From Bdellovibrionales bacterium (GTDB lineage: Bacteria; Bdellovibrionota; Bdellovibrionia; Bdellovibrionales; JAUICD01), in the NCBI GenBank assembly GCA_965203275.1, contig OZ241865.1, forward strand, positions 1,280,001 through 1,344,000: a stretch of DNA of 64,000 bases. The letters run 5' to 3'. The number at the start of each line of letters is the position of its first letter. Position 1 is the first letter of the stretch. Position numbers and translations under genes: made by a program. The notes below the pieces were generated by a model. It searched no databases and was not told the origin of the DNA. It was given only the letters and a program-made list of their open reading frames with translations. Below, in pieces: positions 4,040 to 61,811 of this stretch.

Positions 4040-4328
4040 CACTAAAAGTAAACTGACCTCTGGTCACTTTTGGGTAGCCAGCCCGACGGCTACCGCCGTC
4101 GATCAAAGGCTGGCTACCTCAAAAGTCCGTTTACTTTTAGTAGGAAGGATCCCTTCGTCTCTTGACCACATGTTAAGGAAAAAGTCCTATTTTACGCCTT
4201 TTGGCTGTCGTCGTCGATCAAAGGCTGGATACCTCAAAAGTCCGTTTACTTTTAGTAGGGGAGGATCCTCTCGTCTCTTAACCACATGTTAAGGAAAAAT
4301 TTCCTTTATTGCATTGAGCTTGTTTCCC
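4040..4328. repeat. Repeat mosaic: module A (4040-4183), partial A, half B
   Basis: ACTAAAAGTAAAC/GTTTACTTTTAGT outer stem, TGACC-TCT-GGTCA hairpin, CGACGGC-TACC-GCCGTCG hairpin, TGTTAAGGAAA end. Confidence 0.9.
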
Positions 4329-4530
4329 AAAAACACAATCGGCGATATAGATAAGAAAAATTTAGTATTTACAGGTGTATGAATACTTGCATATTGAGCT
4401 TTTAGCTCTTTGTATCTTTCAATATAAGGTTCAAATTCAGGATTAGTTTGCATCTGTGCAATAGTTTTGAACAAAGCTGAATGTGATCGAAATGCATTTT
4501 GAATATCAGTTAATAAGACAGGATATTCTT

Positions 4531-4791
4531 CTATTTTTTCAATTTTTCAGTTTTCACACCTTTTACGGATTGTAATTCAAGAGTGACTTTTTCTTTTCTC
4601 TTCAGATTGTCTTGCTGCACTAAGTTCCTAGGAATTGTGATCTTTAAACCAGCTTCTTTTTGATATAATACGACACTTTTTTCATTGAAGCTGTGAACAA
4701 ATCCTTTAACCTGAAACCCTGAAATACCAGCCATAGCTACAGCAGAACCAAATGAACATACAAATATGATCAATATTACTAATTTGTTCAT
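4531..4791 (-). CDS. Small basic secreted protein
   Basis: 86 aa, signal peptide, SD GGAGG upstream. Confidence 0.75.
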   Translation of the reverse strand: MNKLVILIIFVCSFGSAVAMAGISGFQVKGFVHSFNEKSVVLYQKEAGLKITIPRNLVQQDNLKRKEKVTLELQSVKGVKTEKLKK

Positions 4792-4853
4792 AACTCTTCC
4801 TCCCTTTGATATGTTTAGCTACTTTTTTAATTAAATTATTTTTAAAAATATTT

Positions 4854-5888
4854 TTAATGTGTCCCTCCTCCTGGTGCGAATCTTCTTTCATATCGATGAC
4901 TGTCGTCTATCTCTCTTCGTTGGATAAATTCTTGTACCTCAGTATAATTTCCAACATCATCTGCTTCATCATTAGCACATTCGTTAGGATCTGTAGGGCA
5001 AGTACATCGTACGGGACCAGCACCACGAATACATTCTTTCCTATCACAAATTGCACCTCCAATGACACCATCGGCCCAATCTCCATCTGCATTTTTACAT
5101 CTTATTAATGTCATACGACATTGAGTCCCTACAAGTTCTGTAGCACCTATTTGTTCACAGCTATGATAAGTTCCACCTATTTCTTCTTCAGCTCTTTCTT
5201 CAGCTTCATCTTCTCCTATTTTTTCTGTCTCAGTATAATTTCCAACATCATCTGCATCATTATCATTAGCACATTCGTTAGGATCTGTAGGGCATGAATT
5301 ACGTGGAAAACTACCACAGTCTATACTAGGACAAGATCTGCCTTGAGATGGTACACAGTTACAGGCAGGGTTTTCATAAGCAACATTACAATTCGCTGTA
5401 GCTCTAGCATTCTCTGGGATGAGAGGTTCTCCATCTTGTATACAACCAGTAACAACGATATGACATAGATTATCTTCAATATAAGTCTCTCCCGCTCTTT
5501 CACAATTACTTATACCTCCTTGGTAAACTGCACTAGATGCAACTGCTGTAGCAGTATATCTTACAAGACCATCCGAATCATAATCATTAGCACACTCGTT
5601 AGGATTCGTAGGGCATGAATTACGTTGTGCATCACCACAATGTACAGGACAAGAGTCTGAACAATTATTACATGCAGGGTCTGCATAAGCAGCATCACAA
5701 CTTGCTGTAGCGGAGGGAATAGTTCGCTCTCCATCGCTACATCCCCTGACTTCTACAATACATAAACCCTCTGTATTAACTGAGTAGGAGCCAACAACTT
5801 GACAGTCCGTGTAAGTGTCACTTTGAGCATAAACAAATATGCTACCATAAATAATACCTAAGAGTGAAAAATAAAAAAAATATTTCAT
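4854..5888 (-). CDS. Secreted Cys-rich repeat protein (3 domains ending CPT[DN]PNECAND)
   Basis: 344 aa, signal peptide, internal repeats. Confidence 0.85.
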   Translation of the reverse strand: MKYFFYFSLLGIIYGSIFVYAQSDTYTDCQVVGSYSVNTEGLCIVEVRGCSDGERTIPSATASCDAAYADPACNNCSDSCPVHCGDAQRNSCPTNPNECANDYDSDGLVRYTATAVASSAVYQGGISNCERAGETYIEDNLCHIVVTGCIQDGEPLIPENARATANCNVAYENPACNCVPSQGRSCPSIDCGSFPRNSCPTDPNECANDNDADDVGNYTETEKIGEDEAEERAEEEIGGTYHSCEQIGATELVGTQCRMTLIRCKNADGDWADGVIGGAICDRKECIRGAGPVRCTCPTDPNECANDEADDVGNYTEVQEFIQRREIDDSHRYERRFAPGGGTH

Positions 5889-5972
5889 AAGAAATCTCCA
5901 TAAAATTTTATAAAGTTTTTACTTAAATTTTAATCCATCAAATAAAAATATTATTACCATTCAATAATGATC

Positions 5973-6299
5973 TCATCTTCGAGATCTTTTTTGTTTCTTG
6001 TTTATTCTTTGAGATTTATGATTAGAAGCCGTCTTTCTTTTGGGGAAAACAACAGCAGAAACAGGAATATTTAATTTAATAGACTGACCAATTTTTTTAA
6101 ATTGACTTCTTAAAGGTCTTGAAATCTTTGATTTTTGAATTTTTAATACTGACTTGTCGTCTGTTTGAACATAATAAAAACCATTACGATAAGTTTTAAG
6201 TCGGCCCTCAACAGAGATGCTAATGTTAGCAAAAGCTGATGTTGCTAGAAAAAGAAAAACTACTCCAAAACCCAAAAAATTAAGTTTTTTATAATACAT
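5973..6299 (-). CDS. Small basic secreted protein
   Basis: 108 aa with an AFA signal-peptide cleavage motif. Confidence 0.75.
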   Translation of the reverse strand: MYYKKLNFLGFGVVFLFLATSAFANISISVEGRLKTYRNGFYYVQTDDKSVLKIQKSKISRPLRSQFKKIGQSIKLNIPVSAVVFPKRKTASNHKSQRINKKQKRSRR

Positions 6300-6454
6300 A
6301 TTAAACCCCTTATTTAATATTTAAAATAAATAGACCTACAAAAGTTTTTATATCTACTTATATTATCGATTATAAATAGAAAAAACTTTAAAGATTCTGT
6401 AAGATTTTGATTTTTTCAGATTAAAGTACCCATTTCTCCACTTTAGTCGTGGTC

Positions 6455-7256
6455 TGTTTCACTCAAAATGAGCCACACTTCTGGTGTGTTTTTGGGCATT
6501 GCTCTGACAGCTATCGCTGTCTAAAAAGAGCAATGTCTCAAAAGTCCGTTTACTTTTAGTAGGAAGGATCCCTCTTGCTTTTTAACACAATGTTAAGGAA
6601 AAAGAGTTTCATTTGTAAACCCGGTTGCTCTTGAGACAATAAAAGGACTTTTTCCTTAACATGATGTAAAGGAATAAAAGGATCCTCCTCTACTCAAAAT
6701 AAATGAATTTTCTAGGCAGTTAGCCTTTGATGACGGCGTGAGCCGTCGGGCTAAACAGCTTATTTCCTTACCATGATGTTAGGAGACGAAGATATCCTCT
6801 TTACTCAAAGTGAACAGGCTTTTGAGACAATGACCATTTTGTCAAAGGCGAAAGCCTTTGCGGTCATTGTCCAAAAGTGGCCAGAGGCCAGTTCACTTTG
6901 AGTGAAACAGAGGTGTGGTTCATTTCAAGTGCAAAAGACGGCATGATTTATTTTGAGTGAAATGTTAAGGAAAAAGTTCCTTTCTTTTTGTTTTTTTATT
7001 CTCTTTTAGATTTTGCGTAAACTCAAACAAGAAGTAATTAAAATGAGAATGGGGCAGTGGGAGACTGAAGATCTTCCGCAAATTGAGCTTGCTCCTTGAA
7101 GGCAAGCTCAATTGAGGACTTCGGAAGGCTCCCACTGCCCTATTCTCAATTAAAAACAAGATGGAAAAGCAGAATCGAAGGGCGGTGGGTGGGGTTAGGG
7201 ATCATCCTTCTGATGCCTGACTGCCGGATCCCAGATAAATTACATGTTAAGAAAAC
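6455..7256. repeat. Repeat mosaic: A(+)-B-A(-,partial), A(-), stacked ends, C (6963-7201), D
   Basis: Direct reading of the module sequences. Confidence 0.9.
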
Positions 7257-7289
7257 AGGTTTGGTGGATTGTTCAACAAACGATAATGT

Positions 7290-7553
7290 TTAGCTTAGAT
7301 TATTTAGTTTTTTCTGTATTTCTCGTATTTTGTTCTCTGTAGACTCTGTGATTTTTGCAATGGTCGAAATATCCATGTTATTTTTAAGCATTTTTAAGAT
7401 GACACTTTGTTCTCCTTCCTGTCGCCCTTCTTGTCGCCCTTCCTGTCGCCCTTTTTGTTCTCCTTCTTGCAGGCCTTCCTGTCGCCCTTTTTGTAACCCT
7501 TTTTGCAATCCTTCTTGTAATAATCTTTCTCTTGTGATCTGTAGTGGTGGCAT
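7290..7553 (-). CDS. RpnS-like C-terminal small protein from an internal start
   Basis: SD AAAGGAGG followed by ATG (MPPLQITRE..EGRQEGRQ..), 87 aa, intact. Confidence 0.6.
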   Translation of the reverse strand: MPPLQITRERLLQEGLQKGLQKGRQEGLQEGEQKGRQEGRQEGRQEGEQSVILKMLKNNMDISTIAKITESTENKIREIQKKLNNLS

Positions 7554-7634
7554 GGTTCTTTCCTCCTTTGATATATGTTTTTCTTCTATTTTTCGCAATA
7601 CTTTCCATGTAAAACTAGGATCATAAATCCTGTC

Positions 7635-8009
7635 TGTTTCACTCAAAGTGAACTGGCCTCTGGCCACTTTTGGACAATGACCGCAAAGGCTTTCGCCTTT
7701 GACAAAATGGTCATTGTCTCAAAAGCCTGTTCACTTTGAGTAGGAAGGATCCCTTCCTCTTTTGACACGATGTTAAGGAAACAAGCTGTCTCTTAACATA
7801 ATGTTAAGGGAAAAAGTTTTATTTGTAAACTCGCTTGCCCTTAAGGCAATAAAAAACTTTTTCCTTAACATGGTGTAAAGGAATAAAAAGATCCTCCTCT
7901 ACTTAAAATAAATGGATTTTCTAGGTAGTTAGCCTTTGATCGACGGCGGTAGCCGTCGGGCTAACTGCCAGAAAACATGCCAGAGGCATGATTTATTTTG
8001 AGTGAAACA
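7635..8009. mobile_element. A-B-A composite element with TGTTTCACTCAAA at both termini, inside the rpn gene
   Basis: Inverted termini; interrupts a coding sequence. Confidence 0.7.
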
Positions 8010-8539
8010 ATACTTGCACCTTTGATGATGGAAAATTCAAATATCCATGGAAACTCAATGGCATCTTCCAAGGCTCCTTACCTGAATAAACCAATACAGG
8101 AATTACCAAAGAAGGCACTTTATTTTTACCCTGTTTACTATCTTTTTCATAAATATTAGCTTGGTAATTGAGCATCTGGATAAAAACACTAGGGTCGTTA
8201 TAAGACTTATGCTCAAAAAGAAAAATAATCTCAACCATCTGCCCTGTTTTCAGTTTAACAGAAAAAATCACATCAGCCCGACGCTCTCTAAAAGCCTTAT
8301 CTATAAAAACAGTCACTCTAGATTGCAAAGTACTCCAATCAAAAAGTTCAAATTCCTCTGAAGTTAAAACCAAACGGAATAAATCTAAAATATATTGTTC
8401 CTTGCTGTAAACTTCATAAAATAAATGGTCAAATAAATGTAAGACATCACGCTTAAAACCTTTTTTGTTCTTTTTAAGATGTTTGAATTTTTTAGACATA
8501 ATCACTCCTTATGTGTTTTTGTTTCAGTAAAAATAGTCT

Positions 8540-8670
8540 TGTTTATTTTTAGTATAGAGGATCCCTCCATTTCTTGACACAATGTTAGGGAAAAAGTTCT
8601 TTCTCATGCCAGATTGCCAGATCCCGGATGCCGGATGCCAGATCCCAGATCCCAGATGCCAGGATCCCGG
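8540..8670. repeat. Right half of module A plus D heptamer tract
   Basis: ..TTTTAGT..GGATCC..TGTTAGGGAAA followed by a GATCCCG/GATGCCG/GATGCCA/GATCCCA run. Confidence 0.85.
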
Positions 8671-8713
8671 AAGAAGGGGGCTTAAGTCACGCCTGTCACA
8701 AAGTTAATGGGAA

Positions 8714-9121
8714 TTAATCAGCCTTAGGAAGTGTGATCAGTCCTATATCAGAAATACCAGCAGCATTCACTTCCCCCATAACTTCAGCAACCACCCCATA
8801 ATATGCCATTTTATCCGCTTGAATATAAATTTGTTTGTTTTGCCTGACCTCAAAAATAGCTGTAAGCTTTTGTCGCAATGATTCTATAGGTATGTGAACA
8901 GAGTCAACTTTAATTTGACCGTCTCTTTGAATGATCAATACAAAGGGATCTTCACGAGTAGCTACTCCAGAACTTGCTGTCTCTGGTAGTTGCACATCAA
9001 TACCTTGTTGCATCATAGGCGTTGTCACCATAAAGATCACTAACAGAACCAACATCACATCTACAAAGGGAGTGATATTGATTTCACTAAGCATGCTTTT
9101 TTGATGAACTGTCATGCTCAT
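8714..9121 (-). CDS. tolR: TolR/ExbD family protein
   Basis: EINITPFVDVMLVLLVIFMVTTPM motif. Confidence 0.9.
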   Translation of the reverse strand: MSMTVHQKSMLSEINITPFVDVMLVLLVIFMVTTPMMQQGIDVQLPETASSGVATREDPFVLIIQRDGQIKVDSVHIPIESLRQKLTAIFEVRQNKQIYIQADKMAYYGVVAEVMGEVNAAGISDIGLITLPKAD

Positions 9122-9864: not shown

Positions 9865-9956
9865 ATTATTTTTTACTATAACTAATTTGTTCTTAAAAAG
9901 ATAACAAAAAAATTAAGTAAAAAAACAGCTTATTTATTTTTTTATACTCTTGTTTT

Positions 9957-10080: not shown

Positions 10081-10081
10081 C

Positions 10082-10546
10082 CTACTGGCTTTTTCTGTTT
10101 TCATTGAGTCTTCTGACAGTTAATCGCAGATCAAATAAACTAATATTTCTGATTTTGCATTCGGCAGTAGGATGTTCTCTATGCCATTTAATCCTTGCTG
10201 TAGGTGGCCTATAACGTACATTAATGTAAACCTTGGGGTTAAGCACTTTAGAATTAGTTGGTAGACGAGGAGTACATTGATGTTTAAAAAAATCAATTTT
10301 AATTGTAGGTACAAGGGCCCTACTTTGATCAGATATATGCTCTATTAACATAGGACAAGATGTGATTGCTAATCGTGACTTTGTGTTTTCTTTAGGCTGA
10401 AATATTAAATATGCTTGCCCAACACTATCTAAAGTCAGCTTTCCTGTATACTTTGAATGAGAAAAACGACAATCTAAAATATTAGTATTAGCAAAAGCTA
10501 AAGGACACCATAAACATAATAAAATAAAAATCAATACATATTTCAT
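10082..10546 (-). CDS. Secreted hypothetical protein
   Basis: 154 aa, AFA signal peptide, coupled to the upstream gene. Confidence 0.75.
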   Translation of the reverse strand: MKYVLIFILLCLWCPLAFANTNILDCRFSHSKYTGKLTLDSVGQAYLIFQPKENTKSRLAITSCPMLIEHISDQSRALVPTIKIDFFKHQCTPRLPTNSKVLNPKVYINVRYRPPTARIKWHREHPTAECKIRNISLFDLRLTVRRLNENRKSQ

Positions 10547-10552
10547 TTATTT

Positions 10553-28029: not shown

Positions 28030-28491
28030 CAGGCTAACTGCCTCAAAAGCCTGTTCACTTTTAGGAAGGAGGATCTCCTCATTTCTTAACACGATGTTAA
28101 GGAAAAAGGAGTTTCTTTTTTTGTTTTTTTATTCTCTTTTAGATTCTGCGTAATTTTCAAAAAAGCATGAATATTATGAGTGGGAGGCGGGGGCAGGCTG
28201 GAGATCTTCCGCAGACCCGCTTGCTCCTTAAAAGCAAGCGAAGGTTGAGGACTTCGGAAGCCTGACTCCGCATTCCACTCATAAAAAATATACAAATGGA
28301 AAAGCAGAATCGAAGGGCGGTGGGTGGGGTTAGGGAGTTAGCTGTTTCACTCAAAGTGAACTGGCCTCTGGCCACTTTTGGGCAATGACTGCAATGGCTT
28401 TCGCCATTGGCAAAATGGTCATTGCCTCAAAAATCTATGCATTTTGAGTAGGGCGAATCTCCTTGCTTCTTGACACGATGTTAGGGAAACA
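28030..28491. repeat. Repeat mosaic: partial A, C (28095-28336), chimeric A (28343-28491)
   Basis: Direct reading; lies between convergent genes. Confidence 0.9.
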
Positions 28492-28522
28492 AGATATGCT
28501 TCTCAAAAACCAGGTGGCTATG

Positions 28523-30439: not shown

Positions 30440-30592
30440 TTTTTTCTCCTTATTTTATATTTGTTGCTATTTCTTACTTTCTTATCGGCAGTTTGTCAGT
30501 TTAAATTCAAAAAAAATCACAATTTATCACAAAATAATCAAAAAAATTAAACAGTGTCTTTTTATTTTTCAGTTTGTATTGAATATTGTACA

Positions 30593-30954
30593 TTTCACTC
30601 AAAATGCATCATGCCTCTGGCATGTTTTTGGACAATGACCGCAATGGCTTTCGCCATTGGCAAAATGGTCATTGCCTCAAAAATCTATGCATTTTGAGTA
30701 GGGCGAATCTCCTTGCTTCTTACACCATGTTAGGGAAAATTTCTTTTATTGCCTCAAGAGCAAGCGGGCTACAATAAAGGAGTTTTTTCCTTAACATGTA
30801 GTAAAAAAACGAAGGTTTCCTCCTTACTAAAAGTGAACAGGCTTTCTAGGTTGCCAGCATTTGAGAAGGCGGTAGCCTTCGGCTGGCAACCAGAAAGTGA
30901 CCAGAGGTCAGTTCACTTTGAGTGAACCAGAGGCATGATTTATTTTGAGTGAAA
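30593..30954. mobile_element. A-B-A composite (30593-30927) plus a stacked end supplying the fumC stop
   Basis: Two different A arms in inverted orientation joined by B. Confidence 0.8.
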
Positions 30955-35246: not shown

Positions 35247-36419
35247 ATGAAACAAAATCAAGTAAAAAAATTAATAAAATTAAAATTAATTAATTTAGTG
35301 AGCTTTCTTTTAACTTTAATATTGAGTATGACACTCAATGCACAATATGCACAATCACAAGGCTTTTCTCATCTAGATCAAGCTATCGCTGAACAAGAAC
35401 TACTTGAACGTTTAATGAACATAGATCAAATGAGTTTAGAAAACTTAAGAGCTAAATTACTAGCAGCAGAAGAAGATAATGAAGGAGCTATGGCAGAAGA
35501 TGGAACTTACATCACAGAAAATGGAACATACTTCATAGAGCTATCAGAGGAAGAAGCCAATATAATAACTTTATTTCAAGATGTAGCTGATGTTTTTCAA
35601 TATGAAAATGCTGTTTCCACATTACCTTTATCCATTAGTCATTTAAGTAGTGTAAACGACCCTGATTCTACTACGAATGCTGATGTTGCAATATCACAAC
35701 AACCACAACAAGCTAACGTGCAACAAGCACCTCCACCTGTAGCCCCTCCCCCTGTAGCGGTCAAAAAAAATGGGGTGCTTAAACGTACTTTTAGTGGGCT
35801 TGGATATACATTTAAGATACTAACACCAAAACCAGTAAGAACAGCCTTTATGATAACGGCATCGGTTATTATGGGAGTATCTACCTATAAATACTTAGAA
35901 GAAAATCCTGATATAGATGGAGCTATACCTGCAAGAATTGCAATCAATGTTTCAAAAGAAGTTATAGTATTTGTATTGAAAATGACTAATGCTGCTATAG
36001 AGTTTCTTGCGAGCTTTGCCCCTGACCTCGGTGAAAATCAATCTTATCAAACCCCAACAGAGGTACCAGCACCAGCACCAGGAGGAGATACAACGCTTCA
36101 GCAAAGTCATGATGGGACTACTGCTGCCACTAGAAGCGAAATGATACTCACCGGCGGAGAAACAACACCTCCAGATCATGATGAAACTGTTGCTACTTTT
36201 GACCGCAACACACAACAAGGTGTAGAACATGTAGAACAACAACCTCCTCTGCCATCAGTTACTGAAACAGAAGTTCAAGTCCATGAACCGCATTGGATCT
36301 TGACAGTGCCGGGGCATTTGAAAGCTGTTAGAAAAGAAGTTGATGTTACTACCAATGACAGTGAACCTGCTGATTCTCTACTTACACGTATTCCTCCTAC
36401 ACGTCCTCCTTCTCAATAA
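35247..36419 (+). CDS. Exported hypothetical Pro/Thr/Gln-rich protein
   Basis: SD GAGGTG before ATG 35247; signal-like segment. Confidence 0.7.
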   Translation: MKQNQVKKLIKLKLINLVSFLLTLILSMTLNAQYAQSQGFSHLDQAIAEQELLERLMNIDQMSLENLRAKLLAAEEDNEGAMAEDGTYITENGTYFIELSEEEANIITLFQDVADVFQYENAVSTLPLSISHLSSVNDPDSTTNADVAISQQPQQANVQQAPPPVAPPPVAVKKNGVLKRTFSGLGYTFKILTPKPVRTAFMITASVIMGVSTYKYLEENPDIDGAIPARIAINVSKEVIVFVLKMTNAAIEFLASFAPDLGENQSYQTPTEVPAPAPGGDTTLQQSHDGTTAATRSEMILTGGETTPPDHDETVATFDRNTQQGVEHVEQQPPLPSVTETEVQVHEPHWILTVPGHLKAVRKEVDVTTNDSEPADSLLTRIPPTRPPSQ

Positions 36420-36423
36420 AAAT

Positions 36424-36502
36424 GGTCAGGCTTTCTAGGCGATGACCATTTTATCGATGGCGAAAGCCCATCGTGGTCATCTAGACCACTTTTAGTGAGA
36501 CA
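36424..36502. repeat. Truncated module A (reverse)
   Basis: GATGACC..GATGGC-GAAA-GCCCATC..GGTCATC followed by GACCACTTTTAGTGA. Confidence 0.8.
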
Positions 36503-36572
36503 AAAGAAGTGAAACTTTATCTTTCCGCTCTTGTATATCTTTCTTATTCTGCTATTTTTTTTAAGCAAAAAA

Positions 36573-49937: not shown

Positions 49938-49953
49938 AGAGAAATGGTTTGTG

Positions 49954-51721: not shown

Positions 51722-51776
51722 GGTTGATTAAAATATAGATTGATTTTAAACTTTTATGGTAAGGAGATCATTCATT

Positions 51777-52073
51777 ATGAAATTTCAAAAAGAAGAAAAA
51801 CTTAATATGATTAAAAAGTTTCAAGCAATGGGACATTCATCAAGCAACCCACCTAAAGTCTTAAACACAGGATGTTTAGAGGTTCAAATTGCTTTATGGA
51901 CACATTCCATTGTGCATCTGACCGAACACTTTAAAATTCACAAAAAAGACCACCACGGTCGTAGAGGTCTCATTCGTTTGGTCAATAAACGACGTAACTT
52001 GCTTTCTTATTTAAAAAGAAACAACTTTAAAAGATATAAAGCTTTGATTACTGAACTTAATATTCGCAAATGA
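51777..52073 (+). CDS. rpsO: 30S ribosomal protein S15
   Basis: [17 protein letters not shown]; truB-rpsO-pnp synteny. Confidence 0.95.
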
Positions 52074-52228
52074 TTATTTCACTCAAAATACATCATTGAT
52101 TGACTCAAGATCAGCATTCATTATATCTACTTGTCTTTCGACCTTAGAATAAAATACTAGTAATTAGAAAATACAGTGTTAGAATAAAAAAGTCTGAGAA
52201 ATATAACAAAGGTTAAAAAGGAGTAAGG

Positions 52229-54331
52229 ATGTCTAAAACAATAACAGAATGTAAAGTAGGGCAGAACACTATTTGTCTTGAAACAGGGGTCATGGCCAAG
52301 CAAGCTGACGGGGCGGTGGTAGCAAAGTGTGGCAACAACATTGTGTTGGCCACAGTGGTTTCATCTAAACAGCCTTCATCATTTGATTTTTTCCCTTTGA
52401 CGGTGGAATACCAAGAGAGGCTTTATGCCTCTGGGAAGATCCCTGGAGGTTATTTTAAAAGGGAGGGTAGGCCAACAGAATTAAATACTCTTAACTGTCG
52501 ATTGATCGATCGTCCTTTAAGGCCTCTTTTCCCTGAAGGTTACAATCATGAAACACAAATCATTACCTCAGTGTTGAGTTTTGATGGGCTTTTCCCTGTT
52601 CATATTTTAGCTGGCATAGCTTCTTCAACAGCACTTCATATTAGTGATATTCCTTTCCATGGACCTGCTTGCTCTATTCAGCTAGCAAGGGTCAACAAGG
52701 AGTTCATTGTCAATCCTGATTCTAAGCAAATAGAGGAATCTGATATGAATATGGTGATTGCAGGGACAACAAAAGGGCTTTTGATGGTGGAAGGAGAATC
52801 TCAATTTTTAACAGAAAATGAAATTTTAGAGGCACTCAAATTTGCACATCAGTCTTTTCTTCCTTTAATTGAAGCACAAGAAGATTTACGATCTAAAGTA
52901 GGGCATACCAAGAGAGATTTTACACCTGTCAGTATTGATCCTTCTATTAGAGAAAAATTAGAACAAAAATTTAAAAGCCAAATTGTGACAGGACTTAAAA
53001 TTAAAACCAAGCAAGAAAGATATGCCCATCTTGCAGACCTTCAGGTAGAAGCTACTGAGAATATCACAGAAGAGATATTAGATGAGTCTGCAACAGAGCA
53101 AGAAAAAGAGGCTACTCAACAAACAGTACAGACAGTATACAATCAGTTAAAGTATGAGATTGTCCGCAATATGATTTTAAATGAAGGTGTACGTATTGAT
53201 GGAAGGAACAGCACAGATGTACGTCCTATTGAATGTGAAGTGGGTGTATTACCTAGAACACATGGTTCAGGACTTTTTACAAGAGGTGAGACCCAAGTGC
53301 TAGGTACGATCACTTTAGGCACATCTGATGACGCACAAAGTATTGATACTCTGTATGGTCCTTTAAGTAAAAGGTTTCTTTTACATTATAATTTCCCTCC
53401 TTTTTGTGTAGGAGAGACAGGACGTGTAGGAGGTCGAAGTCGTAGAGAAATTGGCCATGGCTTTTTAGCAGAAAGAGCCTTATCTGCTATTTTACCTCAA
53501 GAGGAAACCTTTCCTTACATTATTAGATTGGTTGGCGAAGTATTAGAATCAAATGGCTCAAGTTCTATGGGAACAGTGTGTTCTGGTATGTTAGCTCTTT
53601 TAGATGCAGGAGTGCCAGTGCAGAAAAATGTAGCAGGTATTGCTATGGGATTGATTAAGGAAGGGGAACAAGTAGCTATTTTATCTGATATTTTAGGTGA
53701 CGAAGATCATTTAGGGGATATGGATTTTAAGGTAGCTGGTGCAAGAGATGGTATCACAGCACTGCAAATGGATATTAAGATTGATAATATTGACTTTGAT
53801 ACAATTGAAAAGGCCTTGATGCAGGCCAAGCAAGGTCGTAATGAAATTTTAGACAAAATGGAGCAGGTTATATCTCAACCTCGGGCTGATTTATCTCCAT
53901 TTGCACCTCGCATTGAGACCATTAAAATCAATCCAGATAAGGTAAGAGATGTCATAGGTCCAAATGGTCGAACCATTAAAGATATTATTGCCACAACAGG
54001 TGTTAAAATTGACATTATGGATGATGGCACGATCAATGTGGTATCTTTAGAACCTGAAACCAGACAGCAAGCCTTAGATATGATTAAGAATATTATAGCT
54101 GATCCAGAAGTAGGAAAAGTATATAAAGGAACAGTGGTCAAGATCGCTGACTTTGGTGCTTTTGTAGAAATTTTATCAAATACAACAGGTCTATTGCATA
54201 TTTCTGAGATAGCAAGAGAGCGTGTGACGAATGTATCAGATTACCTGAAAGAAGGCGATCAGATTGATGTAAAGGTATTAGATATGGATCGCACGGGTCG
54301 TATCAAACTATCCCGCAAAGTTTTATTGTGA
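52229..54331 (+). CDS. pnp: Polyribonucleotide nucleotidyltransferase
   Basis: RNase PH domains, KH and S1 domains; GDMDFKVAG. Confidence 0.97.
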   Translation: MSKTITECKVGQNTICLETGVMAKQADGAVVAKCGNNIVLATVVSSKQPSSFDFFPLTVEYQERLYASGKIPGGYFKREGRPTELNTLNCRLIDRPLRPLFPEGYNHETQIITSVLSFDGLFPVHILAGIASSTALHISDIPFHGPACSIQLARVNKEFIVNPDSKQIEESDMNMVIAGTTKGLLMVEGESQFLTENEILEALKFAHQSFLPLIEAQEDLRSKVGHTKRDFTPVSIDPSIREKLEQKFKSQIVTGLKIKTKQERYAHLADLQVEATENITEEILDESATEQEKEATQQTVQTVYNQLKYEIVRNMILNEGVRIDGRNSTDVRPIECEVGVLPRTHGSGLFTRGETQVLGTITLGTSDDAQSIDTLYGPLSKRFLLHYNFPPFCVGETGRVGGRSRREIGHGFLAERALSAILPQEETFPYIIRLVGEVLESNGSSSMGTVCSGMLALLDAGVPVQKNVAGIAMGLIKEGEQVAILSDILGDEDHLGDMDFKVAGARDGITALQMDIKIDNIDFDTIEKALMQAKQGRNEILDKMEQVISQPRADLSPFAPRIETIKINPDKVRDVIGPNGRTIKDIIATTGVKIDIMDDGTINVVSLEPETRQQALDMIKNIIADPEVGKVYKGTVVKIADFGAFVEILSNTTGLLHISEIARERVTNVSDYLKEGDQIDVKVLDMDRTGRIKLSRKVLL

Positions 54332-54343
54332 CTTTTGTTTCCC

Positions 54344-55230
54344 TTTCACTCAAAATGAGCCACATCTCTGTTTCACTAAAAGTGGTCTGACCTCTGGTCA
54401 CTTTCTGGTTGCCAGCCGAAGGCTATTCGCCTTCTTAAATGCTGGCAACCTAGAAAGCTTGACCACTTTTAGTAAGGAGGATCCATTTCTCATTTAACAC
54501 CATGTTAAGGAAAAAGTTCTTTCTTACACCTTTTGACCACGATGGCTTTCGCCATCGGTAAAATGGTCATCACCTAGAAAGCCTGACCACTTTTAGTAAG
54601 GAGGATCTCTTCGTTTCTTAACACCATGTTAAGGATTTGTTTCACTCAAAATGCATCATGCCTCTGGCATGTTTTCTGGCAGTTAGCCCAACGGCTTATC
54701 GCCGTTGATCAAAGGCTAACTGCCTAGAAAATCCATTTATTTTGAGTAGGGAAGGATCTTCTCGTCTCTTAACATGATGTTAAGGAAACAGTTCCTTCTT
54801 ACACCTGCTTGCCTGATGCCGGATCCCGGGATCCCGGATCCCGGAAAAAATCAATTTTAACTTTAAGTGTTTTTACACAACTTGTATAAATAAGCTCCTA
54901 ATTGATCAGCTTGTTTTGCTAATTCCATACAGCCACTAAATTCCAAGTCTAGTATTGCCTGAACTGTTTTTCACTAAAAGTAAACTAGCCGTCTTTTGCA
55001 CTAAAAGTAAACTGACCTCTGGTCACTTTTGGGTTGCCAGCCGAAGGCTATTCGCCTTCTTAAATGCTGGCAACCTCAAAAGTCCGTTTACTTTTAGTAG
55101 AGGAGGATCTCTTCGTTTTTTGACTACATGTTAAGGAAAATGTCCTTCTAATGGCAGTTAGTCCGACGGCTTATCGCCGCCGATCAAAGGCTAAGCTGTT
55201 TCACAGTGGTCTAGCCTCTGGCTACTTTTT
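54344..55230. repeat. Large repeat mosaic: three full A copies (54369-54514, 54638-54790, 54999-55140), partial copies, D tract, stacked ends
   Basis: Direct reading of the module sequences. Confidence 0.9.
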
Positions 55231-55342
55231 GGTTGGTTTTTTGACTAAGTTATAATATAATGTTTCATTAGTTAGACAGATGATTAGAAATTAAGTTATT
55301 ATTAAGTATTATGTTTAAAGATATAAAGGGAGGTTCAAAGTT

Positions 55343-56416
55343 ATGACAGAGAGAATTTTATTACAATTAACAATAGATGCTATTTTCAAGGCTTTTTTTG
55401 AAAATAGAAAAGATCTTTTAATTTCACTGGTAGAGAATTTTGTACCTTTGCCTAAGGGTTCTGTGATAGAGGATGTTTCATTATTAAACACAGAGCTTCT
55501 TCCCGATAAGGTTCCAGACGAATACAAATCCTTTACTTTAGATTTGCGTGTGAAATTAAGAAGACAGGTCAGAGGCGTTCTTCAAGATACAGATATTGTC
55601 CATGTAGAAGTTCAAACAACAAGTCAAAAATTTTTTACAGATCGGATATTAGTTTATGCTTCTAGGGCTTATTCTGGTCAGATAAAGAAAGGCGAAGATT
55701 TTAATCAATTACTTCCTGTGTATTCACTTGTTTTTACAACAGCTAATTTAAAAGAATTTGCAGGGATAAAGGATTACTATCATATCTGCAATATCCGTCG
55801 GACAAAACCACCAGAAGTGATTATGTCTCGTGGATTGTGTTTTGTCATTGTGGAATTAGGCAAGTTTCAGTCAAGTTTGCATGAATTATTTGACAAAAAG
55901 GCAGATTGGTGTTATCTTTTAAAGAACTCTGGTAATATGGATTTAAAGGAGTATACCAATTTTCAAAACAAGGGAGGTATTATGGCAGAAGCAGCAAAGC
56001 ACTTATGGATATTATCAAAAGATGAGACATTACAGGAACTTGCAATGGTGAAAGAGAGAGACAGAAAAGATCAAGCAGCCAGAGAAGAGGGTGCTTATGA
56101 AGAAGGAATGAAGAAAGGGATGAAGAAAGGTCGTAAGGAAGGAATGGAGGAAGGAATGGAGAAAGGAATGGAGAAAGGAATGGAGGAAGGAATGGAGAAA
56201 GGAATGGAGAAAGGAATGGAGAAAGGAATGGAGAAAGGAATGGAGAAAGGAATGGAGAAAGGAATGGAGAAAGGGATGGAGAAAGGGATGAAGAAAGGTC
56301 GTAAGGAAGGAATGGAGAAAGTGGCACAAAATATGTTGAAAGAAAATCTCAATATTTCATTGATTTCTACAATGACAGGTTTATCCAAAGATGACATTCT
56401 CAAGCTGAAAAAATAA
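55343..56416 (+). CDS. Rpn-family PD-(D/E)XK nuclease with GMEK repeats
   Basis: DAIFKAFF, LDLRV, HVEVQ, DRILVYAS; SD GGGAGG upstream. Confidence 0.9.
   Translation: MTERILLQLTIDAIFKAFFENRKDLLISLVENFVPLPKGSVIEDVSLLNTELLPDKVPDEYKSFTLDLRVKLRRQVRGVLQDTDIVHVEVQTTSQKFFTDRILVYASRAYSGQIKKGEDFNQLLPVYSLVFTTANLKEFAGIKDYYHICNIRRTKPPEVIMSRGLCFVIVELGKFQSSLHELFDKKADWCYLLKNSGNMDLKEYTNFQNKGGIMAEAAKHLWILSKDETLQELAMVKERDRKDQAAREEGAYEEGMKKGMKKGRKEGMEEGMEKGMEKGMEEGMEKGMEKGMEKGMEKGMEKGMEKGMEKGMEKGMKKGRKEGMEKVAQNMLKENLNISLISTMTGLSKDDILKLKK
56101..56321. repeat. 12-bp coding tandem repeat (GMEK/GMEE/GMKK, ~18 units)
   Basis: ggaatggagaaa repeated. Confidence 0.95.
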
Positions 56417-56421
56417 TTTGC

Positions 56422-56838
56422 TCAAAAGTAGCCAGAGGATTATCCCTAACCCCACCCCCCACCCTTTGATTGCTTTTTTCACTCAAAATGAACTGGCCTC
56501 TGGCCACTTTTGGGTAGCCAGCCCGACTGCTCACGCCGTCGTAAAAAGCTGGCTACCTCAAAAGCTTGTTCATTTTGAGTAGAGAAGGATCTCCTCATTC
56601 CTCTACACCATGTTAGGGAAAAAGTGCTTTTATTACCTTAAGAGCAAGCGGTTTACAAATGAGGGACTTTTTCCTTAACATGTAGTTAAAAAACGAGGAG
56701 ATCCTCCTTACTAAAAGTAAACGGATTTTTGAGGCATTGCTCTTTTTGGACAGCGATAGCTGTCAGAGCAATGCCCAAAAACAGCCAGAGGCTGGTTTAC
56801 TTTTAGTGAAACAGAGGCTGGTTTATTTTTAGTGAGAA
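56422..56838. mobile_element. A-B-A composite (56477-56813) with flanking fragments
   Basis: Two different A arms joined by B. Confidence 0.8.
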
Positions 56839-56852
56839 TAAAAGGAGGCGTT

Positions 56853-57167
56853 ATGGCAGAGGCAGCAAAGCACTTATGGATATTATCAAAAGATGAGACA
56901 TTACAGGAACTTGCAATGGTGAAAGAGAGAGACAGAAAAGATCAAGCAGCCAGAGAAGAGGGTGCTTATGAAGAAGGAATGAAGAAAGGAATGAAGAAAG
57001 GAATGGAAAAAGGGATGGAGAAAGGGATGGAGAAAGGTCGTAAGGAAGGAATGGAGGAAGGGATGGAGAAAGTAGCACAAAATATGTTGAAAGAAAATCT
57101 CAATATTTCATTGATCTCTACAATGACAGGTTTATCCAAAGATGACATTCTCAAGCTGAAAAAATAA
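56853..57167 (+). CDS. Stand-alone RpnS-like protein (copy of the Rpn C-terminus)
   Basis: SD AAAGGAGG plus ATG; near-identical to 55982-56416 but with fewer repeats. Confidence 0.75.
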   Translation: MAEAAKHLWILSKDETLQELAMVKERDRKDQAAREEGAYEEGMKKGMKKGMEKGMEKGMEKGRKEGMEEGMEKVAQNMLKENLNISLISTMTGLSKDDILKLKK

Positions 57168-57171
57168 ACTG

Positions 57172-57940
57172 CTCAAAAGTGACCAGAGGTCAGTTTACTT
57201 TTAGTGAAACAACTATCCCTAACCCCACCCGCCACCCTTCGATTCTGCTTTCTCATTTTGTTTTTACTTGAGGATGAGGGCAGAGGGAGCCTTCCGAAGT
57301 CCTCAATTGAGCTTGCTTTTAAGGAGCAAGCTCAATTTGCGGAAGATCTCCAGTCTCCCTCTGCCCCCATCCTCCCCTAAATGATTTTTTATTTGAGAGT
57401 TACGCAGAATCTAAAAAAAATAAAAAAACAAAAAATACTTCCTCCGGGATACGGAATCCCGGGATCCGGGATCTGGGATCCGGGATCTGGCAAGCCGGCA
57501 TCAGATCCCGGGATGCCAGATTGCTTGATCCCGGATCCCGGGAGTAAATGTTTTGTTTCCTTAACATGGTGTTAAGAGAAAAAAGGATCCTCCTCTACTC
57601 AAAATAAATGAATTTTCTAGGCAGTTAGCTTTTGATCGACGGCGGTAGCCGTCGGGCTAACTATTAGAAGAATGTTTTCCTTAACATGGTGTTAAGAAAC
57701 GAAGAGATCCTCCCTACTCAAAGTGAACAGGCTTTTGAGACAATGACCATTTTGTCAAAGGCGAAAGCCTTTGCGGTCATTGTCCAAAAGTGGCCAGAGG
57801 CCAGTTCACTTTGAGTGAAACAGAGGTCAGTTCATTTTGAGTGAAAAAAATTGAGGACTTCGGAAGGCTCACACTGCCCTATCCTCAAATAAAAATAAAA
57901 TGGAAAAGCAGAATTGAAGGGCGATGGGTGAGGTTAGGGA
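57172..57940. repeat. Repeat mosaic: A end, C(-) 57216-57435, D tract 57444-57543, two A(-), partial C
   Basis: Direct reading of the module sequences. Confidence 0.9.
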
Positions 57941-57978
57941 TTGGGGGTTTGGATAGAGGGGCAGGGGTAGATCCAGAG

Positions 57979-60147
57979 TTAGGGGGTGGGGCCGGGAAGT
58001 AAATCTTGTCTATCTTGAGGATGCCAACCTTTACTATCATACGGAAGTTGTCTATTATGATTTTGACTCCCTCTTATACAACAATGATGGTCACTTTCTG
58101 TTTTTACCTCATACACATCTGTAGTATTGCTTGACAGCTTAAATTTGAAAGGGTCATAAAAAGTAAAGTCATGCCAGTCCGTTCTACCATAGTGGTCTAA
58201 ATCCTCACAATCTTTTGTATAACAAGCATCGAGACGGCTTGGACACATATTATTGTGAAGATCGTCATTGTCTTCAAGATACTGTTGTTGACCTGTCCAA
58301 CCTGCTAATTTAGCAGCAGTGGCACAAGTAGGGTAACATTCACCAGCACTAGATACATATTTATATCCAGGAGGACAATCTCTTTTGTAAGCTCGTCTGC
58401 AACATTTATCTTCTACAGCACCTTTAATTTCCAAAACATTCCAGGTCTGTCTATCAACATCGCAATAATCCCCAGTTTGTGTTTCAACTAAGAGAGCTTT
58501 TGCAGTTGTTTTCTCAAACACCATACAACGTGGAAGGCATTGACTCCCACCTACAGGTGTAGCATAGCCTGCAAGTATTTGCTCCTGAGTACAAGTAGCA
58601 TTCACATCTTCCTCTCCCTCCTCAGATGATGATGCAGTGGAGGTGGGGCTAGATGAAGAAACGGGTACACAACCATTAGCAGCACTTGTTCCACATCCAG
58701 GGTAGTAAGGTATTGACGGTTGACCAGGAGGTCTTGGACGGGTATATATCCATCCATATTTATTTACAGAAGCTTGAGGTGTTGCACCTGATGAAGAACT
58801 TTGCATAAAGAAGGCATCCTCAACTCCCCTAACCCCTGTGCCTACTTCAGAAGATTCATCGTTACTTCCAGATCTTCCAGTGGTCGTAGATGTTGTTGAA
58901 TCTGTGCTAGATTCTGCCGGGTCAGGACTGGCCTGCCATGTTGTTGTACCTTTACCATGAATGATTTGAACTGTTCTTACGATAGCTTGATTATTAATTA
59001 AGCATTTATATGCAATGCGATCGGTCTCAACCTCTTCGACAGTTGCACAGTTACCAGTGCATGCATACCCCCAATTAGGGTCTCCACCTGAGCCTTTTTG
59101 TAAAATTTGTACAACACGATCCATAAATCTCCAGTTTTCATTTGTGTGTTGAGCTTGATCTGTTATAGTGTTTTGATGATGTTTAAAAAATGTATTAAAC
59201 TCTTCTTCATACTGCTGTCTTGTCATATCTACAACCCTCTCCTGCTCATTAGGGATATTACATCTGCCTGGGCAAGCTTCACTGTTAGGATCCTCAGAAC
59301 ATGACCTAACAATTTCACAACAACAGTTCTCTTTACAATTCTCATCCTGTGAACATTCACTACCATCAAAGTTATCTGAAGCCTCAAAATTGAAAACACA
59401 ACCATTCCCCTTTGTGCTAGGTAATTTGACTAACACCAGCTCAGATCTTTCTCTTATATTGCCTGCATGACCAGCAGGAAGTCTCTTTTTAACAAGACCT
59501 GACACCATTAAGCCAATCACATCTCCAGAGCGAAGCACTAAATTTTCTAGTTTTGAAGCCTCTGTACGTCGACCCAATGATAATCTTTTATTTGGTACCC
59601 ATCGATAATCATATAAATTTTTGATATTCTCAGCATCTAATGTGTGACAAGCCTCACCCTCTCTCATATAATCATAAGTAGCAGCAACAGACTCATCGTC
59701 ATTTAGCTTTACTAAAATCCATGGATTGCCTTCGACTTTTACATCCATATTAGGAAGTGATAAAGACGGCCATTGACCTAATTGAGTATGATCAATGCAA
59801 ATTTGTCCATTTTTTTTAATCTCTATTTTTGTTATTTTAGATGTTTCAGGCCACTTTCCTACAATTGGTTCGCCTCCCGGCGGTCCCTCATCCCCTGGAG
59901 GGACTTCAACACCAGGATCGTCTATATCTTTATCAGGGTCAGGAGGATCAGGGTCAGGGAGAACAGTATCACCGGGGCGATCTGCGGCACGATTAGAAGG
60001 ATATTCAGACGATTCTTCCCCTCCTAAAAAAGAACAGTTCATAAACATCAAAAGGCTTGCAATACTTGTTAGGCTAAGAGCCATTAATACTTTTTCTTTT
60101 TGATGATTACGTTTGACTGGAATTTTCATTTTAAATAACAACCTCAT
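57979..60147 (-). CDS. Cys-rich lipoprotein
   Basis: LMFMNC lipobox-like site, many paired Cys, Ser/Thr linkers; start uncertain. Confidence 0.8.
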   Translation of the reverse strand: MRLLFKMKIPVKRNHQKEKVLMALSLTSIASLLMFMNCSFLGGEESSEYPSNRAADRPGDTVLPDPDPPDPDKDIDDPGVEVPPGDEGPPGGEPIVGKWPETSKITKIEIKKNGQICIDHTQLGQWPSLSLPNMDVKVEGNPWILVKLNDDESVAATYDYMREGEACHTLDAENIKNLYDYRWVPNKRLSLGRRTEASKLENLVLRSGDVIGLMVSGLVKKRLPAGHAGNIRERSELVLVKLPSTKGNGCVFNFEASDNFDGSECSQDENCKENCCCEIVRSCSEDPNSEACPGRCNIPNEQERVVDMTRQQYEEEFNTFFKHHQNTITDQAQHTNENWRFMDRVVQILQKGSGGDPNWGYACTGNCATVEEVETDRIAYKCLINNQAIVRTVQIIHGKGTTTWQASPDPAESSTDSTTSTTTGRSGSNDESSEVGTGVRGVEDAFFMQSSSSGATPQASVNKYGWIYTRPRPPGQPSIPYYPGCGTSAANGCVPVSSSSPTSTASSSEEGEEDVNATCTQEQILAGYATPVGGSQCLPRCMVFEKTTAKALLVETQTGDYCDVDRQTWNVLEIKGAVEDKCCRRAYKRDCPPGYKYVSSAGECYPTCATAAKLAGWTGQQQYLEDNDDLHNNMCPSRLDACYTKDCEDLDHYGRTDWHDFTFYDPFKFKLSSNTTDVYEVKTESDHHCCIRGSQNHNRQLPYDSKGWHPQDRQDLLPGPTP

Positions 60148-60285
60148 AATCTTTTATCGGCAAAATATTGTCTTAATTTGAGTCTTTTTTTCTTAAAACC
60201 TCTTTTTTATTGTTTGATTAAAAATTTGGCTTATCTTTATATTAAAAATTGACTTATCTTTTAAAAATAATTCACAATAACCCTT

Positions 60286-60843
60286 ATGGAACAAAACCTT
60301 TCTGACCACAAATCTCAAATTATAGCTATTATAAAAAAGCGATCACTTCAAAAAGGACCTATTCGCTTAGCTTCTGGTAAGGTCAGCAATTTCTATATCG
60401 ATCTCAAACAAACTATCCTTGACCCTCAAGGACTTGACCTCTTATCAGACTTGATTTTAGAGTTCTTAAACAAAAAAAATCTTGTTGGTGTGGCAGGCTC
60501 TGGTATAGGAGCATTGCCTCTCACAACGGCTGTCACCCTAAAATCGCTAAATACTCCTAAACCCTTTCTGCATCTTTATATACGATCTCAAGTAAAGGAG
60601 TGGGGGACTAAACAAGTGATAGAAGGCACTCACAGCTTCCAACCTAAAGATAAAGTTTGGATTTTAGAAGATGTTGTCACAACAGGCGGTTCTAGCCTCT
60701 ATGCTACTCAAAAGTGTCAAGAGTTTGGTCTCCAGGTAGAAGGCATTCTCACCTGTGTTGACCGACAAGAGGGAGGGAGAGAAAAGATTGAAAATAAAGG
60801 CATTCACTTTCACAGCTTAATCCATATGTTTGATTTACACTAA
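60286..60843 (+). CDS. pyrE: Orotate phosphoribosyltransferase
   Basis: LASGKVSNFYID, EDVVTTGGS. Confidence 0.94.
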   Translation: MEQNLSDHKSQIIAIIKKRSLQKGPIRLASGKVSNFYIDLKQTILDPQGLDLLSDLILEFLNKKNLVGVAGSGIGALPLTTAVTLKSLNTPKPFLHLYIRSQVKEWGTKQVIEGTHSFQPKDKVWILEDVVTTGGSSLYATQKCQEFGLQVEGILTCVDRQEGGREKIENKGIHFHSLIHMFDLH

Positions 60844-61811
60844 AAGTAAACTGACCTCTGGTCACTTTTGGACATTGCTCTGACAGCTATCGCTGTCCAA
60901 AAAGAGCAATGTCGTTGGTTCACTAAAAGTGGTCTGACCTCTGGTCACTTTCTGATTGCCAGCCGAAGGCTATTCGCCTTCTTAAATGCTGGCAACCTAG
61001 AAAGCATAACCACTTTTAGTAGGAGGATCCTTTCCTCTTTTAACATCATGTTAAGGAAACAGAACTTTATTCGCAAACCGCTTGCTTCTGAGGTAATAAA
61101 AGAAATTTTCCTTAACATGGTGTAAAAGAATAAAAGGGTCCTCCTCTACTCAAAATGCATAGATTTTTGAGGCAATGACCATTTTGCCAACGGCGTAAGC
61201 CGTTGCGGTCATTGCCCAAAAACATGCCAGAGGCATGATGCATTTTGAGTGAAATGTTAAGGAAAAAGTCCTTTCTGATGCCGGGTTGCCAGATCCCGGA
61301 TCCCGGGTGAACACAATGTTAAGGGTTTGTTTCACTCAAAATGCATCATGCCTCTGGTTCACTAAAAGTAAACTAGCCTCTGGCTACTTTTGGGTAGCCA
61401 GCCCGACGGCTCTCGCCGTCGATCAAAGGCTGACTACCTCAAAAGCTTGTTCAATTTTAGGAAGAAGGATCACCTTGCTTTTTAACATGATGTTAAGGAA
61501 AAAAGATTTCCTTTTTTTTGTTTTTTTTATTCTTTTTTAGATTCTGCGTAATTTTCAAAAAAACATAAAATTTATGAGTGGGAGGCGGGGGCAGGCTGAA
61601 GATCTTCCGCAAATTGAGCTTGCTTTTAAGGAGCAAGCTCAATTGAGGACTTCGGAAGCCTGACCCCGCATTCCACTCATAAAAAACATACAAATGGAAA
61701 GGCAGAATCAAAAGGGTGGCGGGTGGGGTTAGGGAGTTTGTTTCACTAAAAATAAACCAGCCGTCATTTTCACTCAAAATGAATTGACCTCTGGACGCTT
61801 TTAGTGAAACA
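60838..61811. repeat. Repeat mosaic: partial A, A-B-A (60918-61254), D, A (61358-61503), C (61491-61735), stacked ends
   Basis: Direct reading; lies between convergent genes. Confidence 0.9.

Follow-up and report, generated by a model that had tools for sequence, protein, structure and literature searches.

The stretch analysed here, called the window, comprises 64,000 nucleotides of a Bdellovibrionales bacterium (G000:C1:1280001-1344000) and comes from a single-contig genome (2.57 Mb, 35% G+C, 90% marker completeness). It carries many copies of module A, a non-coding unit of ~156 nucleotides (nt) that folds as a three-armed hairpin and whose helices keep Watson-Crick complementarity while their sequences change. 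Module A is probably a selfish repeat family that acts at the DNA level, of the same kind as the repetitive extragenic palindromes (REPs) and REPINs, the bacterial interspersed mosaic elements (BIMEs) and the miniature inverted-repeat transposable elements (MITEs), with an architecture of its own and no recognised transposase partner.

Copies were located with nhmmer, using a profile of 156 model positions made from 715 full-length BLAST copies. Genome-wide this profile gives 1,406 matches, of which 768 span at least 140 of the 156 model positions; together the element covers 159,564 bases i.e. ~6.5% of the 2.57-Mb genome. The window contains 26 copies, 17 full (model positions <=5 to >=147) and 9 partial, close to the “about 15 full and many partial copies” counted in the original prediction, which had been made from the letters of the window. 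The tail motif TGTTARGGAAA, allowing at most one mismatch, is found at 32 sites in the window against 5.9 +/- 2.5 in shuffled sequence (0/100 shuffles reach 32), and its exact form at 1,128 sites genome-wide. Open reading frames (ORFs) of at least 100 aa span 76.5% of the genome and hold 7,777 of the element bases (4.9%), and of the DNA outside long ORFs module A accounts for roughly one quarter. It occupies 372 of the 1,597 intergenic gaps, which together contain 1,379 copies, with an occupancy of 31% for convergent, 28% for divergent and 18-21% for co-directional gaps. Copies interrupt genes and other copies, and are themselves truncated on either side (322 at the 5' and 248 at the 3' side). 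Many are 95-100% identical to one another, which argues for recent copying or activity.

In the fold of module A an outer stem, P1, encloses the hairpin P2 and a long bulged stem, P3, which bears a terminal hairpin. The consensus begins with (T/C)TG-TTTC, the 5' arm of P1 (13 nt), the P2 hairpin (5 bp, loop TCT) and CTTTTGG; it continues with a 10-bp stem, a 7-bp terminal hairpin, an A-rich bulge, the return arm, a bulged T and CAAAAG; three unpaired bases, the 3' arm of P1 and the tail complete it. The tail is composed of a short GATC-centred palindrome and a CTTAACA-NNN-TGTTAAG hairpin, often followed by AAGGAA-N4-TTCCTT. The features listed in the original prediction (TCT loop, A-rich 3' bulge, terminal hairpin, single bulged T and GATC tail ending TGTTA(A/G)GGAAA) are all present; the covariation of the small tail hairpins is a point absent from it. 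Folded as single-stranded DNA (ssDNA), six of six test sequences from five copies, two of these taken on both strands, gave a three-way junction, with z between -7.3 and -11.1.

In the 677 full copies of the source genome 26,187 of the 27,467 stem cells are Watson-Crick, and most stem positions accept two to four pair types, e.g. GC 356, CG 203 and TA 103 for one P3 pair. To these we added a three-genome alignment, A1, of 69 copies: 17 from the window, 47 from a congener (G001) and 5 from a sister genus (G004). RNAalifold recovers P1, P2 and P3 unaided from this set, and 29 of the 38 pairs change on both sides, so that the prediction of a conserved pairing without a conserved sequence is borne out in three genomes. 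Paired cells reach 94.6% in A1 and 76.6% when the 3' letters are shuffled (0/500 shuffles reach the observed value), a control that leaves relatedness uncorrected and that related sequences alone can beat. When partners are slid by 1-3 columns only 31-47% of cells pair. Given this second control and the variety of pair types seen in the three genomes, chance or descent alone is an unlikely cause of the pairing. The “selection on structure” proposed earlier most likely serves the propagation of the element itself rather than a function in the host.

The stems exist in a limited number of forms: ~9 main ones for P1, 6 for P2, 5 for the base of P3 and ~10 for its stem. The P1 and P2 pairs given in the original prediction, five of each, all appear in the window rows of A1. 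Five of its six P3 versions are found in the window as complementary arm pairs; the sixth (TGATGACC) is represented there only by its 3' arm, GGTCATCA, at 54533-54635, the full pair being present elsewhere in the genome. To call these versions “unrelated” was an overstatement, as within a few groups they differ from one another by one to three substitutions (GGCAATGACC / GACAATGACC / GGCGATGACC; GGTAGCCAGC / GGTTGCCAGC). Among the 677 full copies we counted 165 combinations of P1, P2 and P3a/P3b forms, with linkage plus many recombinants. Whole helices are swapped between lineages and module A is a mosaic, its stems being reshuffled modules from a small number of lineages.

The copies also follow rules of arrangement. 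Neighbours at most 150 bp apart are on the same strand in 679 cases, tail-to-tail in 168 and head-to-head in 69. The gap of tail-to-tail pairs peaks at 40-49 nt (58/168 pairs) and is filled by a conserved linker of ~45 nt, module B, which carries CATTTGTAAACCCGCTTGCTCTTGAGGTAATAAAAG in either direction between the inverted module A tails; the whole composite (A-B-A') is a palindrome of ~350 bp. The 5' head usually abuts unique DNA, in which (T/C)TG alone is conserved just ahead of the unit, whereas the tail is nearly always followed by module B, by another copy or by module C, i.e. runs of CCGGGAT/CCAGAT-like heptamers. This asymmetry results in head-out palindromes (A, B, inverted A) and in same-strand arrays. 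Genome-wide, the copy closest to a gene end has its head facing the gene in 388 of 611 cases. Another copy stands directly upstream of 332 of the 677 full copies; neither this stacking nor the joining of tails to other repeat modules figures in the original prediction. For 96 of those 332 the end of the older copy is precisely position 30, inside the P2 loop (CCTCTG). This junction (...CCTCTG^TTTC...) is a sharp hot spot, and the older fragments that end there derive from at least five subfamilies. Further recurrent stops of older copies are at model positions 147, 26, 115, 81 and 87-89; the downstream fragment seldom resumes at the stop point of the upstream one.

The copies of the window are listed below. 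Each line except the last two, which give modules B and C, is an nhmmer match in window coordinates, and model positions are those of the profile; Rpn-like genes are considered further on.

4035..4185 (+): full copy, P1 ACTAAAAGTAAAC, P3 GTAGCCAGCC; model 3-153, E 2e-44; ssDNA fold -42.2 kcal/mol, z -10.2
4202..4300 (+): 5'-truncated copy, model 55-152; its P1 3' arm is of the P1 type of the preceding full copy
6454..6605 (+): full copy, left arm of a tail-to-tail pair
6647..6755 (-): 5'-truncated copy, model 45-153
6759..6910 (-): full copy
7634..7785 (+): full copy, the left A of the A-B-A' composite splitting an Rpn-like gene; also folded
7855..8009 (-): full copy, the right A' of the composite splitting this Rpn-like gene
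8538..8598 (+): fragment with P1 3' arm and tail, model 94-154; 33 bp upstream of the start of an Rpn-like gene
28031..28109 (+): fragment, model 75-153
28343..28493 (+): full copy
30592..30740 (+): full copy, paired tail-to-tail with 30783..30927 (left arm)
30783..30927 (-): full copy, paired tail-to-tail with 30592..30740 (right arm)
36407..36503 (-): 3'-truncated copy, model 2-117
54368..54518 (+): full copy; upstream of it a 5' fragment of another subfamily ending ...CTCTG in the P2 loop
54533..54635 (+): 5'-truncated copy, model 45-147, with the GGTCATCA arm
54637..54793 (+): full copy
54994..55143 (+): full copy; an Rpn-like gene follows 200 bp downstream
56475..56625 (+): full copy, 59 bp past the end of that Rpn-like gene, paired tail-to-tail with 56666..56814 (left arm); also folded
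56666..56814 (-): full copy, right arm of the pair with 56475..56625
57168..57211 (-): 5' fragment, model 3-46
57553..57664 (-): 5'-truncated copy, model 42-152
57673..57823 (-): full copy, top score of the window
60835..60913 (+): 5' fragment, model 5-86
60916..61063 (+): full copy, paired tail-to-tail with 61105..61255 (left arm)
61105..61255 (-): full copy, paired tail-to-tail with 60916..61063 (right arm)
61355..61505 (+): full copy
6606-6646, 7786-7854, 30741-30782, 56626-56665 and 61064-61104: module B linkers
8610-8675 and 54805-54845: module C heptamer runs beside module A tails

The distribution of module A is narrow. By BLAST it is present in 3 of 41 related genomes i.e. the source genome (G000), the congener and one genome of the sister genus. 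The congener contains 146 tail motifs, against 2 for a control pattern, many of them in tandem arrays. A covariance model finds 12 copies in the sister-genus genome and none in G002, in the sister genome G003, in G011 or in G022 (150 of ~1,000 candidates scored per genome). A scan of public genomes with a loose pattern returned at least 81 stretches; a profile check of 80 of these confirmed 26 loci, all on one 2.94-Mb record. In a metagenome collection a strict pattern, which recovers 721 copies in the source genome, returned 9 stretches and no real copy, and plasmid and phage collections gave no match. In a literature search of limited reach, covering REP/REPIN/RAYT, Rpn and sponge symbionts, we did not find a description of the unit.

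Module A is best filed as a further form of the fold-defined selfish intergenic repeats already known. With the REP/REPIN/BIME-RAYT systems of E. coli and Pseudomonas, as presented in the available text of PMC3116915 and PMC2817692, it shares high-copy extragenic palindromes that keep pairing while their sequence drifts, the BIME-like mosaic arrays of units and linker motifs, and a vertical, lineage-restricted distribution. The tail-to-tail pairs described above are inverted doublets with a spacer, as in REPINs, and module A is likewise extragenic, 95% of its bases lying outside long ORFs. As in REPs, GTAG precedes a short palindrome, here at the joint of P1 and tail, where it is part of P1 and varies with it. 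The differences are nevertheless large: a REP is a single hairpin, an imperfect palindrome of 20-40 nt headed by GTAG or CGTC, whereas module A has ~156 nt, a three-way junction and five helices, with whole helices exchanged between lineages. REPIN genomes have a Y1/RAYT gene, which the repeats usually flank; neither the source nor the sister-genus genome has one. Hundreds of intergenic mosaic hairpin repeats are also the mark of the Ssn NTS/SRM system and of neisserial arrays, and the working idea of a nuclease gene among its own target hairpins is common to both cases, so far as the available text of Chenal et al. 2025 (PMC11893778) describes it. Module A is much larger than these repeats, and no small GIY-YIG gene accompanies it: the sole PF01541 match of the source genome sits in a 653-aa frame, which its size suggests to be UvrC.

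The MITEs (Correia/CREE, RUP, ERIC) are intergenic, strongly structured, non-coding and of the same size class (100-160 bp), and undergo bursts in host-restricted bacteria. In contrast to MITEs moved by DDE transposases, for which a target-site duplication of fixed length is typical, module A showed no such duplication in the copies compared, its two ends are alike in only 8-9 of 11 bases (by eye only), no parent insertion sequence (IS) with matching ends was found in a comparison with an IS256-like element, and its ends are asymmetric, with a structured body at one side and a tail at the other. With PATEs and attC sites it has in common a presumed recognition by fold rather than sequence, extrahelical bases, the absence of target duplication, a conserved short motif on the 5' side and an orientation-specific stacking. 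It differs from IS200/IS605 PATEs in that the Y1 transposase gene is absent, and from attC sites in that there is no integron integrase and no ORF cassette between copies. The source genome has two tyrosine recombinases, which best fit Xer models and score 55 and 54 bits with the integron model TIGR02249 (cut-off 265). The original prediction had recognised neither REP, attC nor a known RNA family in the unit, and this holds with no Y1 gene, only two Xer-like recombinases and no Rfam match.

Several results weigh against the classification as a selfish mobile repeat. Mobility is presumed: no insertion event is documented and no empty site was found. Compared with the congener the gene order is scrambled: genes are 67-78% identical and, because each block maps to a different place, there is no orthologous gap to compare. 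No target-site duplication was detected above the level of shuffled pairs, either in 114 solo copies or in 7 head-out composites, all unique (best k-mer excess 10 vs 3 expected for the solo copies; none for the composites, a small sample). Upstream and downstream fragments pair perfectly in only 15 of 62 apparent nestings, so most arrays are not clean insertions into one older copy, and self-nesting as the sole route of array growth was rejected. The arrays are therefore, as far as their outer arms tell, mosaics of several copies rather than simple nestings, and recombination or template switching may be behind much of the local pile-up. Since junctions recur as identical composites, the independent events are also far fewer than the copies.

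The same holds for the search for an enzyme. The Y1/RAYT/IS200 profile PF01797 has 0 matches in the source genome (its control matches 6 of 14 genomes, E. coli included) and 0 in the sister-genus genome; IS110 and reverse transcriptase profiles have 0 matches in the source genome. For TnpB the sole match (29 bits) is inside a 1,365-aa frame and was judged not to be TnpB. No transposase with matching ends was found, those of an IS256-like element (GAGCATGTCC...) being unrelated to module A.

A few further observations concern the IS elements and the reads. An IS91-type Y2 profile has 0 matches in the source genome, its control likewise matching nowhere. By all-against-all comparison and by eye, the IS256-like element is represented by a cluster of 9 ORFs, six of which, once aligned, are identical, and an IS4-like element by 7 copies. 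Two IS256-like copies are inserted into module A. In four DNA runs analysed over 52000-63900, unique contigs end at repeat blocks, and the read depth at these blocks is roughly 100-250x that of single-copy bins. Excision events suggested by read contigs were rejected: the listed joints in this interval are all copy-to-copy i.e. the product of cross-mapping.

Among the nuclease- or transposase-like families tested, only Rpn adjoins module A. It is the largest such family of the source genome (14 PF12784 and 16 PF04754 matches), and one gene of the window, 55343-56416, passes the NCBIfam Rpn model TIGR01784 (91.6 bits, cut-off 52.1). Four Rpn-family (PD-(D/E)XK, YhgA-like) genes or pieces lie in the window:

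1-696 (-)
7290-8505 (-)
55343-56416 (+)
56832-57167 (+)

Their C-terminal parts contain runs of a four-residue EG/QG-rich repeat. The gene at 7290-8505 is split by an A-B-A' composite, with a loss of 230 bp relative to an intact paralogue, and the split block was later duplicated elsewhere in the genome.

The neighbourhood of the two raises the possibility, unlikely in our opinion, that Rpn PD-(D/E)XK nucleases bind the folded unit or cut it, thereby driving its copying or its recombination, as in the RAYT-REPIN and Ssn-hairpin systems. Element DNA is within 500 bp of 44 of the 46 Rpn-cluster ORFs, against 28% of 1,431 single-copy ORFs, 22% of the 9 IS256-like and 29% of the 7 IS4-like ORFs; as paralogues share flanks, the 44 are not independent events. 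Rpn genes are found in all 3 element-bearing genomes and in 5 of the 38 element-free genomes. RpnA is reported by Kingston et al. 2017 (PMC5350276) to be a nuclease that promotes RecA-independent recombination; these authors found no sequence specificity in vitro and do not settle whether a specific target exists in vivo. But the sister genome has 16 PF04754 matches and no element by BLAST, covariance model or tail motif, nor any dense repeat family in four of its Rpn-bearing stretches. In G022, which has 14 PF12784 matches, the flanks share no repeat of at least 40 nt beyond the gene unit, a length below which hairpins would escape. Several Rpn genes are broken by the element, which fits the two residing in the same junk regions. 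The head-toward-gene arrangement is general rather than specific to Rpn, and a fixed Rpn-element gene layout was rejected on this ground. Rpn proteins are described in PMC10400941 as toxic nucleases with an internal antitoxin, and toxin-antitoxin or defence genes would in any case be expected in variable regions. In view of the two Rpn-bearing genomes without the element and of the published Rpn properties, the link is kept as a minority reading. If it were nevertheless true, Rpn nucleases, long labelled putative transposases without a defined mobile DNA, would be the trans-acting partner of module A and the two would form a third nuclease-hairpin repeat system beside RAYT-REPIN and Ssn-SRM, a proposal to which we give a low probability; such a pairing would account for the scrambling of the genome as well as for the way the stems are shuffled into mosaics.

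It seems improbable that module A is the relic of a REPIN- or IS200/IS605-type ssDNA system whose HUH (Y1) transposase has been lost and whose copies now only recombine. Such an origin would agree with the hairpin-rich ends without target duplication, the (T/C)TG conserved 5' of the unit, the insertion-like loop junctions in one orientation and the REPIN-like inverted doublets; in addition, 30 of 41 genomes of the order have Y1 matches, some of them 15-29. Yet the lack of a Y1 match concerns a genome in a single contig as well as that of the sister genus, and the congener's only Y1 gene is that of an ordinary IS200, its hairpins unrelated to module A and its distance to the nearest copy 1.8 kb. 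Moreover the 95-100% identity of many copies indicates recent copying, and the unit is four to five times the length of a REP.

There is very little chance that module A is a multiplied structured non-coding RNA or cis-acting RNA signal (terminator, stabiliser or processing site). The strong covarying fold and a tail that ends with a hairpin and then an A/T-rich run are what such a signal would show. But both strands fold nearly equally well (-45.0/-44.1 and -42.2/-43.1 kcal/mol for the two copies folded on both). The G:T pairs are not favoured over A:C: the non-Watson-Crick stem cells of the 677 full copies are 128 G:T/T:G, 360 A:C/C:A and 792 other mismatches (of 27,467), the first two classes being roughly even because three subfamily-wide positions supply about half of the A:C cells, and the three-genome set has 26 G-U-type cells vs 138 unpaired ones. 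Orientation does not follow the flanking genes, as in co-directional gaps the majority orientation is along the gene direction in 79 and opposite in 96, and divergent gaps are as often occupied as convergent ones. About half of the copies are stacked on other copies. Finally, Rfam has 0 matches at threshold in the whole window; the best sub-threshold matches of the unit are generic microRNA hairpins, the first a plant one with 43 bits for a cut-off of 100. Together the equal folding of the strands, the unfavoured G:T pairs, the independence from gene orientation and the absence of an Rfam match point to a unit acting at the DNA level and not as an RNA gene.

REP-linker-REP units bind IHF, and the A-B-A' layout recalls them. 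That module A would be a set of DNA structural sites kept by the host for a nucleoid protein, gyrase or recombination, like some REPs and BIMEs of E. coli, could find an argument in its strictly intergenic location, in unpaired motifs conserved across three genomes (TCT loop, bulged T, ATGTTAAGGAAA) and in this regular layout with its ~45-nt linker, but is made most improbable by copy numbers that range from ~1,400 here to a few hundred in the congener, 12 in the sister genus and 0 in the sister genome, by copies that break genes and one another, and by a share of the DNA outside long ORFs far above the needs of binding sites.

For a selfish DNA-level repeat the following course can be proposed. 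The unit can extrude on either strand as a three-way junction, its tail forming one or two small hairpins, and the fold would be recognised by a trans-acting protein or by the replication or repair machinery. Only copies with intact helices would be copied onward, and pairing would in this way be kept. New copies might insert by preference at the unpaired loops of existing copies or next to these, via single-stranded or cruciform DNA. Exchange at conserved joints (TCT loop, CTTTTGG/CTCAAAAG, TAGTAGG) may reshuffle the stems. The burst to 6.5% of the genome would fit a bacterium that lives with a host, has a rearranged genome and is under relaxed selection.

If so, module A would be among the densest and most elaborately folded bacterial repeat families, having spread without the enzymes known for hairpin repeats. 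It would offer a clean test bed for what copies fold-defined repeats without RAYT, IS200 or Ssn, and for the question whether Rpn has a natural DNA target. It would also mark the breakpoints of a heavily rearranged host-associated genome and so bear on how repeats reshape symbiont genomes. The more ordinary outcome is one more lineage-specific selfish repeat.

The genome itself presents signs of a host-associated genome in flux. These are a 153-member paralogue cluster whose representative appears by eye rich in ankyrin-like repeats, 34 pilin-like ORFs, a GC skew that is flat along the whole contig, and the identical IS256-like copies. In a DNA run labelled “sponge metagenome”, contigs span flanking single-copy genes of the window with a few percent differences; among the public runs listed for the stretch there is no RNA run. 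Two ORFs of the window, of 949 aa at 880-3729 (-) and of 344 aa at 4854-5888 (-), have no Pfam match at E<=0.001.

In the congener the tandem arrays (e.g. G001:C1:2868258-2870190) have a period of 231-431 bp and at least 8 copies, a satellite-like form absent from the window. At positions 14888-15033 of L136, in the sister genome, three 41-nt tandem units with CATGTTAAAGAA...TTTTTTAACATA palindromes look like module A tails fused together. A further long hairpin repeat, GAAGATCTTCCGCA ... GAGGACTTCGGAAGG, which contains an inner palindrome, stands beside module A copies at ~7050-7135 of the window, and is also found in the sister genus (L008 ~10380-10440, L009 ~7950-7990). Lastly, nine near-identical copies of a 101-aa ORF, which by eye has the look of a four-helix bundle, are scattered genome-wide (e.g. 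472364-472669). Module A lies 60-100 bp downstream of each of them, with its tail toward the gene in 8 of 9. Runs of module C flank this gene on both sides, and two or three of the copies are bracketed A-C-gene-C-A', in the manner of a cargo.

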